IMG/VR virus record: IMGVR_UViG_2718218139_000002 | Length of the DNA stretch: 33,748 bases | Source of the DNA: a virus | Lineage: Duplodnaviria > Heunggongvirae > Uroviricota > Caudoviricetes | Direction: 5' to 3' (one strand) | Shown: in pieces, positions 13,601 to 15,905 of the stretch | Numbering within the stretch: the first letter of the stretch is position 1 | Layout: each line of letters opens with the position of its first letter | Position numbers and translations under genes: made by a program | Notes under the pieces: generated by a model | The model's input: the letters and a program-made list of their open reading frames with translations, nothing else | Told to the model about the DNA's origin: nothing | Database searches by the model: none

Positions 13601-13924
13601 ATGAAGATGCCAGAAAAACATGACCTGTTAGCCGCCATTCTCGCGGCAAAGGAACAAGGCATCGGGGCAATCCTTGCGTTTGCAATGGCGTACCTTCGCG
13701 GCAGATATAATGGCGGTGCGTTTACAAAAACAGTAATCGACGCAACGATGTGCGCCATTATCGCCTGGTTCATTCGTGACCTTCTCGACTTTGCCGGACT
13801 AAGTAGCAATCTCGCTTATATAACGAGCGTGTTCATCGGCTACATCGGTACTGACTCGATTGGTTCGCTTATCAAACGCTTCGCTGCTAAAAAAGCCGGA
13901 GTAGAAGATGGTGGAAATCAATAA
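13601..13924 (+). CDS. S: Holin S (class I, dual-start antiholin/holin)
   Basis: [39 protein letters not shown] matches lambda S as recalled; Met1-Lys2-Met3 dual-start arrangement. Confidence 0.9.
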
Positions 13925-14213
13925 TCAACGTAAGGCGTTCCTCGATATGCTGGCGTGGTCAGAGGGAACTGATAACGGACGTCAGAAAACCAGAAATCAT
14001 GGTTATGACGTTATTGTCGGTGGTGAACTCTTCACTGATTACTCCGATCACCCTCGCAAACTTGTCACGCTAAACCCCAAACTCAAATCAACAGCCGCCG
14101 GGCGCTACCAGCTTCTTTCCCGTTGGTGGGATGCCTACCGTAAGCAGCTTGGCCTGAAAGACTTCTCTCCCAAAAGCCAGGACGCTGTGGCACTGCAGCA
14201 GATTAAGGAGTGA
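13908..14213 (+). pseudogene. R: Endolysin R (lambda-type transglycosylase), truncated at codon 101 by IS600
   Basis: [34 protein letters not shown] matches lambda R as recalled; reading frame stops at TGA formed by the first bases of the IS. Confidence 0.85.
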
Positions 14214-14274
14214 GGTAGCCTGAGTTTAACGGACACTCCTTCCTGAAATAGAATGGCATCAGAAGGAGCTAATA

Positions 14275-14577
14275 ATGAGCAGAAAAACCCAACGTTACTC
14301 TAAAGAGTTCAAAGCCGAAGCTGTCAGAACGGTTCTTGAAAATCAACTTTCGATCAGTGAAGGCGCTTCCCGATTATCTCTTCCTGAAGGCACTTTAGGA
14401 CAATGGGTTACCGCCGCCAGAAAAGGGCTCGGTACTCCTGGTTCCCGCACGGTGGCTGAACTGGAATCTGAAATTCTGCAACTGCGTAAGGCGTTAAATG
14501 AAGCTCGCCTTGAGCGAGATATATTAAAAAAAGCAACAGCGTATTTTGCACAGGAGTCGCTGAAAAATACGCGTTAA
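14275..14577 (+). CDS. IS600 transposase OrfA (HTH)
   Basis: 100-aa ORF with leucine-zipper-like C-terminus; A7G slippery run at 14526-14533 near its 3' end. Confidence 0.8.
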   Translation: MSRKTQRYSKEFKAEAVRTVLENQLSISEGASRLSLPEGTLGQWVTAARKGLGTPGSRTVAELESEILQLRKALNEARLERDILKKATAYFAQESLKNTR

Positions 14578-14612
14578 TCGAACAATGGCGACAACAATTT
14601 CCCATTGAAGCG

Positions 14613-15431
14613 ATGTGTCAGGTATTTGGTGTATCCAGGAGCGGTTATTACAACTGGGTACAGCATGAACCCTCAGACAGAAAACAAAGTGATGAGCGGC
14701 TAAAACTGGAGATTAAGGTGGCACATATCCGCACTCGCGAAACATATGGAACCCGGCGGCTCCAGACGGAGCTGGCAGAGAATGGCATCATCGTTGGTCG
14801 TGACCGACTGGCACGTCTTCGTAAGGAGCTAAGGCTACGCTGTAAGCAGAAACGCAAGTTCAGAGCGACTACGAACTCGAACCACAATCTGCCAGTTGCG
14901 CCAAATCTGCTGAACCAGACGTTCGCTCCTACAGCACCAAATCAGGTCTGGGTGGCGGACCTGACGTATGTTGCCACACAGGAGGGATGGTTGTACCTCG
15001 CTGGCATCAAAGATGTTTATACGTGCGAAATTGTCGGCTACGCCATGGGAGAGCGCATGACAAAAGAGCTGACAGGTAAAGCCCTGTTTATGGCGCTCAG
15101 GAGCCAGCGCCCACCTGCCGGGCTAATCCACCACTCTGATCGAGGTTCACAGTACTGCGCATACGATTACCGGGTCATACAGGAGCAGTTTGGTCTGAAA
15201 ACATCAATGTCGCGTAAAGGTAACTGTTACGACAACGCTCCGATGGAAAGCTTCTGGGGAACGCTGAAAAATGAGAGCCTGAGCCACTATCGTTTTAATA
15301 ACCGGGATGAAGCCATCTCAGTAATACGGGAATACATTGAGATTTTCTACAATCGTCAGCGTCGTCACTCTCGTCTGGGGAATATCTCCCCGGCAGCCTT
15401 CAGGGAAAAATATCATCAGATGGCTGCTTAA
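14613..15431 (+). CDS. IS600 transposase OrfB (DDE integrase domain), probably expressed as an OrfAB fusion by -1 frameshift
   Basis: IS3-family OrfB similarity (WVADLTY...HSDRGSQY...KGNCYDNAPMESFW); overlaps the orfA frame. Confidence 0.8.
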   Translation: MCQVFGVSRSGYYNWVQHEPSDRKQSDERLKLEIKVAHIRTRETYGTRRLQTELAENGIIVGRDRLARLRKELRLRCKQKRKFRATTNSNHNLPVAPNLLNQTFAPTAPNQVWVADLTYVATQEGWLYLAGIKDVYTCEIVGYAMGERMTKELTGKALFMALRSQRPPAGLIHHSDRGSQYCAYDYRVIQEQFGLKTSMSRKGNCYDNAPMESFWGTLKNESLSHYRFNNRDEAISVIREYIEIFYNRQRRHSRLGNISPAAFREKYHQMAA

Positions 15432-15474
15432 AAAAAGAACAAATGGTAGTGTCCGCTATTGCCAGTACACCTCA

Positions 15475-15905
15475 CAGAACTCGACGCCAGATACACAAAG
15501 GAGCTTGCTGATGCTAACGCGACTATCGAAAGTCTCCGTGCTGATGTTTGTGCTGGTCGTAAGCGCCTGCAAGTCGCCGCCACCTGTGCAAAGTCAACGA
15601 CCGGAGCCAGCAGCATGGGCGATGGAGAAAGCCCAAGACTTACAGCAGATAAAGCATTCCAGGCACAGACTGATGCTCAGGTTGCAGCGGCAAATGTTGT
15701 GAAAATACTCGCATCTGCCGATAGTCAGCAGAAATCTGATATCCGCGAGGCTCTGAAACTGCTCGGACAGTTCCAGCAACAGCAAGGAGACAATGCCCGT
15801 GCTGATGCAGAGCTTGTCCTGAAAAGTCAGGCACAGGGTCATGCGCAGCGCATGGACATCAGCAGCATCCTGCAAAAATCAACTCAGCAACAACCGCAGC
15901 AGTAA
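15475..15905 (+). pseudogene. Rz: Rz (i-spanin) 3' fragment lacking its N-terminal TM region; atypical extended C-terminus
   Basis: LDARYTKELADA...RADVCAGRKRLQV aligns with lambda Rz residues about 62-100; no Rz start or TM segment between the IS and this point. Confidence 0.6.
15511..15702 (+). CDS. Rz1: Rz1-like o-spanin lipoprotein embedded in the Rz frame
   Basis: MLTRLSKVSVLMFVLVVSACKSPPP: signal peptide with lipobox cysteine and proline-rich segment, in the +1 frame inside Rz. Confidence 0.5.
   Translation: MLTRLSKVSVLMFVLVVSACKSPPPVQSQRPEPAAWAMEKAQDLQQIKHSRHRLMLRLQRQML

Follow-up and report, generated by a model that had tools for sequence, protein, structure and literature searches.

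How did a prophage come to keep an intact holin gene beside the remains of its endolysin and spanin genes, and what could these remains still do? The question is raised by the lysis region in the IMG/VR virus record IMGVR_UViG_2718218139_000002, whose whole stretch of 33,748 nucleotides is referred to here as the window. An IS600 element lies in this region between gene R (endolysin) and gene Rz (i-spanin). A reading made from the sequence alone, below the sequence-only reading, had explained the loss of the R 3' end and the Rz 5' end by an IS600 insertion with an adjacent deletion of roughly 350 bp.

Structure of the lysis region

The cassette and the inserted element consist of the following features.

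13601-13924, plus strand: intact holin S, 107 aa, with starts at ATG 13601 (S107) and ATG 13607 (S105); TIGR01594, PF05106
13908-14213, plus strand: truncated endolysin R', codons 1-101 of 158; its stop TGA (14211-14213) is formed by IS600 bases 1-3
14211-15474, plus strand (late-operon orientation): complete IS600 (IS3 family), 1264 bp, with ends TGAGGTAGCC...ACACCTCA
14275-14577, plus strand: IS600 orfA; NF033516 transpos_IS3, 48.6 bits
14527-14533, plus strand: A6G slippery site AAAAAAG for the -1 frameshift joining orfA and orfB
14613-15431, plus strand: IS600 orfB, -1 frame; NF033516 transpos_IS3, 334.7 bits
15475-15650, plus strand: internal Rz fragment, nt 164-339 of 438, of the HK75/CUS-3 type, 98.9% identical to HK75
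15511-15650, plus strand: 5' part of Rz1 (o-spanin), about 46 of 61 codons; partial PF06085

This IS600 copy is complete and apparently functional. In the NCBIfam model of the IS3 transposase, orfA matches the N-terminal and orfB the C-terminal part; the element has TG...CA termini and imperfect inverted repeats (IRL TGAGGTAGCCTGAG..., IRR TGAGGTGTACTGGC...). Its identity to copies in complete E. coli genomes whose RefSeq annotation reads "IS3-like element IS600 family transposase" is 99.4-99.8%. Length, ends and frameshift site are shared, whereas the 3-bp target duplication seen at other copies is absent here. The left flank is GAG (14208-14210) and the right flank CAG (15475-15477), without a 3-bp target duplication. 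When identical 1264-bp boundaries are applied to two control copies, they give perfect 3-bp duplications, ATC/ATC in EH2252 and TGG/TGG in 07_3986, and the second IS of the window, an internal control, carries ATT/ATT; the absence at this IS600 is therefore real and not a boundary error. As it is explained by the deletion of 333 bp described below, we do not count the missing duplication against the identification as IS600.

To locate the breakpoints, the flanks were aligned to four intact cassettes, those of the phages HK75, mEpX2 and lambda and of the prophage CUS-3. The left flank matches these references up to R nt 303, i.e., codon 101. The right flank matches from Rz nt 164, the second position of codon 55 in the HK75/CUS-3-type Rz, which projects onto lambda position 46150 in Rz codon 62. 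The gap between the two is 333 bp in HK75 (L001, 1168-1500), mEpX2 and CUS-3 (24341-24673), and 354 bp in lambda coordinates. It is made up of R nt 304-477 (174 nt) and Rz nt 1-163, minus the 4-nt R/Rz overlap, so that R codons 102-158 and the first 163 nt of Rz are lost. The triplet occurs once at each site in the references, where the bases after GAG are CGT and those before CAG are GTAG.

These alignments bear out most of what had been read from the letters alone. The endolysin does end at codon 101 on the first bases of IS600, the flanking triplets do differ on re-inspection and against the control copies, and the estimate of about 350 bp agrees with the measured 333 and 354 bp. The resumption at about Rz codon 62 holds in lambda numbering and becomes codon 55 in the allele that is actually present.

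In comparison with the intact lambda-type S-R-Rz/Rz1 cassettes of HK75, mEpX2, CUS-3 and lambda, S and the control region in front of it are essentially unchanged in the window, while R is without residues 102-158, Rz is reduced to nt 164-339 and Rz1 lacks its C-terminus. Residues 1-101 of R' (WP_077886866.1 at NCBI) are identical to HK75 R and align to the same residues in the lambda lysozyme structures 1AM7 and 3D3D, so only part of the 158-residue fold is present; the 101-aa "glycoside hydrolase" entry should thus be re-annotated as an R stub. The Rz allele is the 145-codon type of HK75, Sf6 and CUS-3, lambda Rz being a more distant allele with about 77% identity. Its remaining 176 bp (58 codons) match only profile positions 35-95 of PF03245, and the native start, the transmembrane domain and the native 3' end are all gone. 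Rz1 retains its start codon (15511), the signal sequence with lipobox and the proline-rich region. Its last ~15 residues are lost; the frame runs on into out-of-frame portal sequence to a stop at 15702, and the PF06085 match covers positions 1-29 of 41 with foreign sequence beyond. A two-component spanin, with a full Rz and an embedded full Rz1 lipoprotein, is thus not encoded here. A tblastn search of the 33.7-kb window found no other copy of S, R, Rz or Rz1. The statement that no functional endolysin or i-spanin remains is therefore upheld for the window.

A second deletion fuses Rz to the portal gene

The loss of the Rz 3' end and of the Rz1 C-terminus is due to another lesion, located immediately downstream of the Rz fragment.

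15650/15651: deletion junction without an IS, with ~5.26 kb missing and 1 nt (T) of microhomology
15651-15905, plus strand: 3' end of a P22-type portal gene, last 84 codons and stop, 99.4% identical to the Sf101 portal 3' end
15459-15905, plus strand: Rz'-'portal fusion ORF of 148 codons with a TTG start inside the IS600 right end; NCBI hypothetical protein DAE08_12105

At base level (alignment to HK75 and Sf101), Rz nt 339 is fused in frame to the last 84 portal codons, whose translation is identical to the C-terminus of the Sf101 portal. In CUS-3 coordinates position 24165 is joined to 18908. The loss of ~5.26 kb covers the 3' ends of Rz and Rz1, two small ORFs, both terminase genes and about 88% of the portal gene. 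The o-spanin is defective as well, since this deletion truncates Rz1 at its 3' end. This lesion had been overlooked by the sequence-only reading, which named only the 5' end of Rz as removed and extended the feature from 13908 to 15905; the span does contain IS600 and the R and Rz remnants, but Rz ends at 15650 and the rest is portal gene.

The most likely history of the ~5.26-kb deletion is a separate illegitimate event. A fusion of Rz residues 1-113 to the portal, as would precede IS600, was not found among 5.8 billion proteins, where the search returned nothing but the 148-aa ORF of the window itself. This "hypothetical protein", DAE08_12105, should be annotated as an Rz'-'portal fusion that starts within IS600.

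Decay of the prophage

Judged by its sequence, the element is a defective CUS-3/Sf6-like (P22-like) prophage remnant at argW of E. coli. The features that define its place and a further insertion are as follows.

32666-32740: argW, tRNA-Arg(CCT)
31347-32540: integrase
17344-18592, minus strand: second IS3-family element, 1249 bp, with IS911-like ends and an ATT/ATT 3-bp duplication, inside the P22-type coat gene

A stretch of 16 nt from the 3' part of argW (window 32673-32688) recurs exactly ~1.08 kb to the left of the window start, beside cscB, and the chromosomal neighbourhood on that side is cscB-cscK-cscA-cscR-dsdA. Both arms of the lysis cassette thus lie within a single att-bounded element in its native chromosomal place. 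An origin in Shigella, which the co-presence of IS600 and an IS911-like element could bring to mind, was rejected because the matching NCBI proteins are all from E. coli and the flanks are the csc-dsdA and argW-yfdC regions of E. coli.

The gene set is that of a P22-like phage (Lederbergvirus), with portal, scaffold, coat, gp4/10/26, ejection proteins and a head-binding tailspike, of which portal and coat are damaged, and without terminase genes. An immI region is present, with ant and the sar RNA. CUS-3 (E. coli RS218, Lederbergvirus), Sf6, Sf101 and HK620 share the integration site of this element and a gene order of int, tailspike, ant, ejection proteins, coat, scaffold, portal ... lysis and Q, and the shared modules are 92-98% identical. 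In contrast to these relatives, the window has lost the terminases and most of the portal gene, its coat gene is split by an IS, its replication genes are deleted, and its tailspike and early-left content differ, most early-left genes having been replaced. The coat halves on the two sides of the IS911-like element align to CUS-3 17212 and 17217. At 6169 a cro-like ORF joins the last ~210 nt of the helicase gene, from which it follows that cII, O and most of P are missing. Searches with PADLOC, Pfam, PHROGs and PDB sequences returned nothing informative for unknown ORFs of 825, 330 and 590 aa.

The prophage is therefore not only lysis-defective, as had been correctly but too modestly concluded; it is also unable to replicate, to package DNA and to build capsids. 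The IS600 lesion in the lysis cassette is routine IS-mediated decay of a cryptic prophage, and the elements involved are 97-100% identical to known ones. As an example of an IS3-family element flanked by a deletion the locus is clean and of textbook quality, and the same prophage also contains a second IS whose target duplication is preserved.

Distribution

The window is 100% identical to GCA_003015365.1 (PVZZ01000002.1) over 12.3 kb. The same structure is found in GCA_013416625.1 and in IMGVR_UViG_2728369393_000002, and the left junction also in GCA_002486255.1, where the sole difference is a patch in Q. Neither the IS600 junctions nor the Rz-portal junction occur in 5,426 complete RefSeq E. 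coli genomes, and no record among these genomes covers more than 60% of the region. The structure belongs to a narrow E. coli lineage, and its junctions can be used as lineage-specific markers for this small group of genomes, with little import beyond annotation.

Two sets of apparent further cases were rejected. The best partial matches among these genomes (H31-H35) turned out to be other, unrelated IS600 insertions close to different lysis cassettes. The contigs ending at R codon 101 (L006-L014) are not additional IS junctions, as they either continue into an intact R or just stop; their common end is a selection artefact of the exact-protein look-up.

Possible origins of the 333-bp deletion

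The best explanation, and one we consider reasonably probable, is a simple insertion of IS600 into the lysis cassette of the defective argW prophage that was followed by an adjacent deletion, with the ~5.26-kb deletion as a separate event. The element would first have entered R (at GAG) or Rz (at CAG). Its transposase would then have driven an adjacent deletion that removed the 333 bp between an end of the IS and the other site, leaving one complete IS600 without a target duplication, and the illegitimate ~5.26-kb deletion would have fused the remaining Rz to the portal tail.

A close parallel is provided by the long-term evolution experiment, in which 14 of 83 IS events combined an IS150 element with the loss of 14 bp to 48.9 kb and lacked a duplication; all 14 were traced back to a simple insertion that had later undergone an adjacent deletion (PMC11708052). 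As in the window, an IS3-family element is kept, the duplication is missing and the deletion abuts the IS end, and 333 bp falls within the size range of the IS150 cases (PMC11708052). However, the prior insertions were observed there at earlier time points, whereas no precursor of the window was found. The junctions of the two hypothetical precursors would be ...ACACCTCA followed by GAG and CGTGGCGC for a simple insertion in R, and ...GATGTAG followed by CAG and TGAGGTAGCC for one in Rz. Both R::IS600 (GAG) and Rz::IS600 (CAG) gave 0 exact matches in viral, genome and metagenome contigs, the genome set being one that also lacks the real left junction, and no precursor state was seen in the 5,426 complete E. 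coli genomes. As no precursor was found, we infer both the order of events and the mechanism.

A different route leads to the same product. If two IS600 copies had inserted in the same orientation, in R (GAG) and in Rz (CAG), homologous recombination between them would have deleted one IS together with the 333 bp, and sequence alone cannot separate an adjacent deletion from such recombination between direct IS600 repeats. The adjacent deletion proposed by the sequence-only reading is thus supported by the differing triplets and the 333-bp gap, but it is one of at least two routes. Each flank does resemble the legitimate half of a 3-bp duplication, and duplications are known to go missing when IS copies recombine with each other (PMC11708052). 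Moreover, an independent IS600 is found in the same region of the same Rz allele in EH2252 (NZ_AP027176), 40 bp from the right junction of the window. It is a simple insertion with an intact ATC duplication and no deletion, and the prophage that carries it is another one, encoding a class II holin and an RrrD lysozyme. Because of this independent insertion the Rz 5' region may be a preferred target of IS600, which would make a second insertion less improbable, and the second insertion may also have been a local hop. Against this, two insertions within 333 bp are required, the genomes searched contained neither single insertion nor the pair, and in the one systematic IS3-family data set considered, every deletion without a duplication was traced to one IS with an adjacent deletion (PMC11708052). 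We therefore regard two insertions with subsequent recombination as possible but rather unlikely.

It is also conceivable that deletion and IS came together, or that a host factor was involved. It has been suggested that an IS may insert at the same time as a deletion arises, leaving no duplication (PMC11708052); IS600 would then have been captured at a double-strand break. A flank deletion of the IS-excision-enhancer (IEE) type would yield the same product (PMC9397093). No iee gene is visible in the window, though, and no signature distinguishes either process from the other models, so that we rate such an origin as improbable. Recombination between prophages across IS600 is disfavoured by the position of the two arms within a single att-bounded element at argW.

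The structure might finally be thought an artefact of assembly, in which two IS600 copies around the 333 bp were collapsed or two loci were misjoined across the repeat. Multicopy elements such as the 1.26-kb IS600 are a classic cause of misjoins, and many short-read contigs break in this region. Yet the identical structure is present in at least three independently assembled records, on contigs of 0.54-1.4 Mb, which makes a one-off misassembly unlikely; the truncated R also occurs on a 5.2-Mb contig, and the window itself crosses two IS elements. Nor would a random misjoin be expected to hit the same cassette again at a distance of 333 bp, with the orientation preserved, and we give an artefact hardly any credence. 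An insertion followed by an adjacent deletion remains our preferred account.

The holin and its control region

The sequence-only reading had called the holin intact with a dual start, and this is confirmed. S matches TIGR01594 over its full length (127 bits, cut-off 55), begins with Met1-Lys2-Met3 and differs from lambda S by a single residue, R105G. The 60 nt 5' of the gene, which include the stem-loop region and the Shine-Dalgarno sequence, are identical to lambda. Further upstream lies a late control region.

12437-13060, plus strand: apparently intact late-gene antiterminator Q, 207 aa; Pfam PF03589 Antiterm, 192 bits
13103-13131, plus strand: pR'-like late promoter, TTGACT-17-TAAATT, from a consensus scan
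13165-13193, plus strand: tR'-like terminator, a 13-bp stem followed by a T-run

The DNA of Q is 97.5% identical to the ninI-Q region of HK544, and the region 13103-13193 aligns to lambda 44449-44609. The Q-pR'-tR'-S module is apparently expressible. N looks absent or truncated, and nutR may have been lost through the cro-to-P deletion. Should late transcription ever be switched on, the holin could make the inner membrane permeable, while murein degradation and disruption of the outer membrane could not follow from the element's own genes.

One could speculate that Q-pR'-S is more than debris and has been kept by the host as a holin-only switch for death or permeabilisation, e.g., for abortive-infection-like killing on SOS induction or superinfection, or alternatively as a gate that passes the endolysins of co-resident prophages. 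We find this very hard to believe, as there is no support for selection, the lesions look recent, and S is a common phage allele, its exact protein being present on more than 1000 contigs.

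Further deletions and a second insertion sequence

Besides the IS600-associated loss, the prophage remnant carries a second deletion in the same region, a further insertion sequence and a junction among the early genes:

15650-15905, second deletion junction between Rz and the portal gene, about 5.26 kb lost, 1 nt of microhomology
17344-18592, minus strand, IS3-family element of 1249 bp with IS911-like ends (TGTAGTGG...), interrupting the P22-type coat gene
5845-6405, cro-like HTH ORF abutting a P-type replicative helicase remnant

At the Rz-portal junction, which is without an IS, nucleotide 339 of Rz is joined in frame to the final 84 codons of a P22-type portal gene; this deletion took out the terminase genes along with the greater part of the portal gene. 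The element in the coat gene is flanked by a clean 3-bp duplication (ATT/ATT). In the early region, the cro-like ORF joins directly, at 6169, the final ~210 nt of the helicase gene. The genes cII and O, together with most of P, appear to have been deleted.

In the Rz fragment, in the region of 15553, the sequence reads ADVCAGRKRL versus ADVSAGRKRL in all homologues retrieved; read in the Rz1 frame, this base change replaces L by V. The substitution is private and lies in a dead gene.

Other IS600 copies and contig ends

Two other loci, L019 (E. coli EH2252, NZ_AP027176; 5001-6264) and L020 (07_3986), each carry a simple IS600 insertion of independent origin, flanked by a 3-bp duplication. One of the two copies interrupts the Rz gene of another lambdoid prophage; the Rz allele is the one found in the window, and the insertion site is 40 bp off the window's right IS600 junction. 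The other copy lies immediately downstream of Rz. IS600 may target the Rz region recurrently.

Numerous unrelated contigs from metagenomes and Logan (L006-L014) stop precisely at R codon 101. These ends were considered as IS junctions and rejected, because the contigs that extend further continue into intact R. The ends are instead a product of selection by the exact-protein look-up, possibly together with a branch point in the assembly graph where R alleles part.

Element boundaries and immI

The whole element is bounded by a direct repeat, 16 nt of the 3' part of argW in two exact copies: the right one at 32673-32688 and the left one outside the window, about 1.08 kb before its start (6058-6073 of L022, the locus covering the left chromosomal flank). 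This flank holds the csc sucrose regulon, then dsdA. Within immI lies an Rfam RNA, which overlaps the beginning of the ant-like gene (28181-29125):

28179-28245, minus strand, sar RNA (P22 immI antisense RNA)

Unassigned ORFs

Two further loci lack an assigned function:

391-3857, plus strand, overlapping ORF pair of 825 and 330 aa in the early-left arm
8317-10089, minus strand, counter-oriented 590-aa ORF of the nin region, with dam/ninE on one side and the HNH/ninG genes on the other

The 825- and 330-aa ORFs are opposed in strand to pL transcription, and a resolvase gene lies upstream of them, just beyond the window (L022). Pfam, PADLOC, PHROGs and PDB sequence searches gave no match for either, and both carry the label "hypothetical" in the sources, in Citrobacter as well as in E. 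coli. The two could form a pair of accessory (moron) or defence genes of an unknown kind. The 590-aa ORF had no match in Pfam or PADLOC searches and matches phrog_9230, of unknown function. It is present on more than 1000 contigs and is also carried by the Stx1 phages SH2026Stx1 and AU6Stx1.
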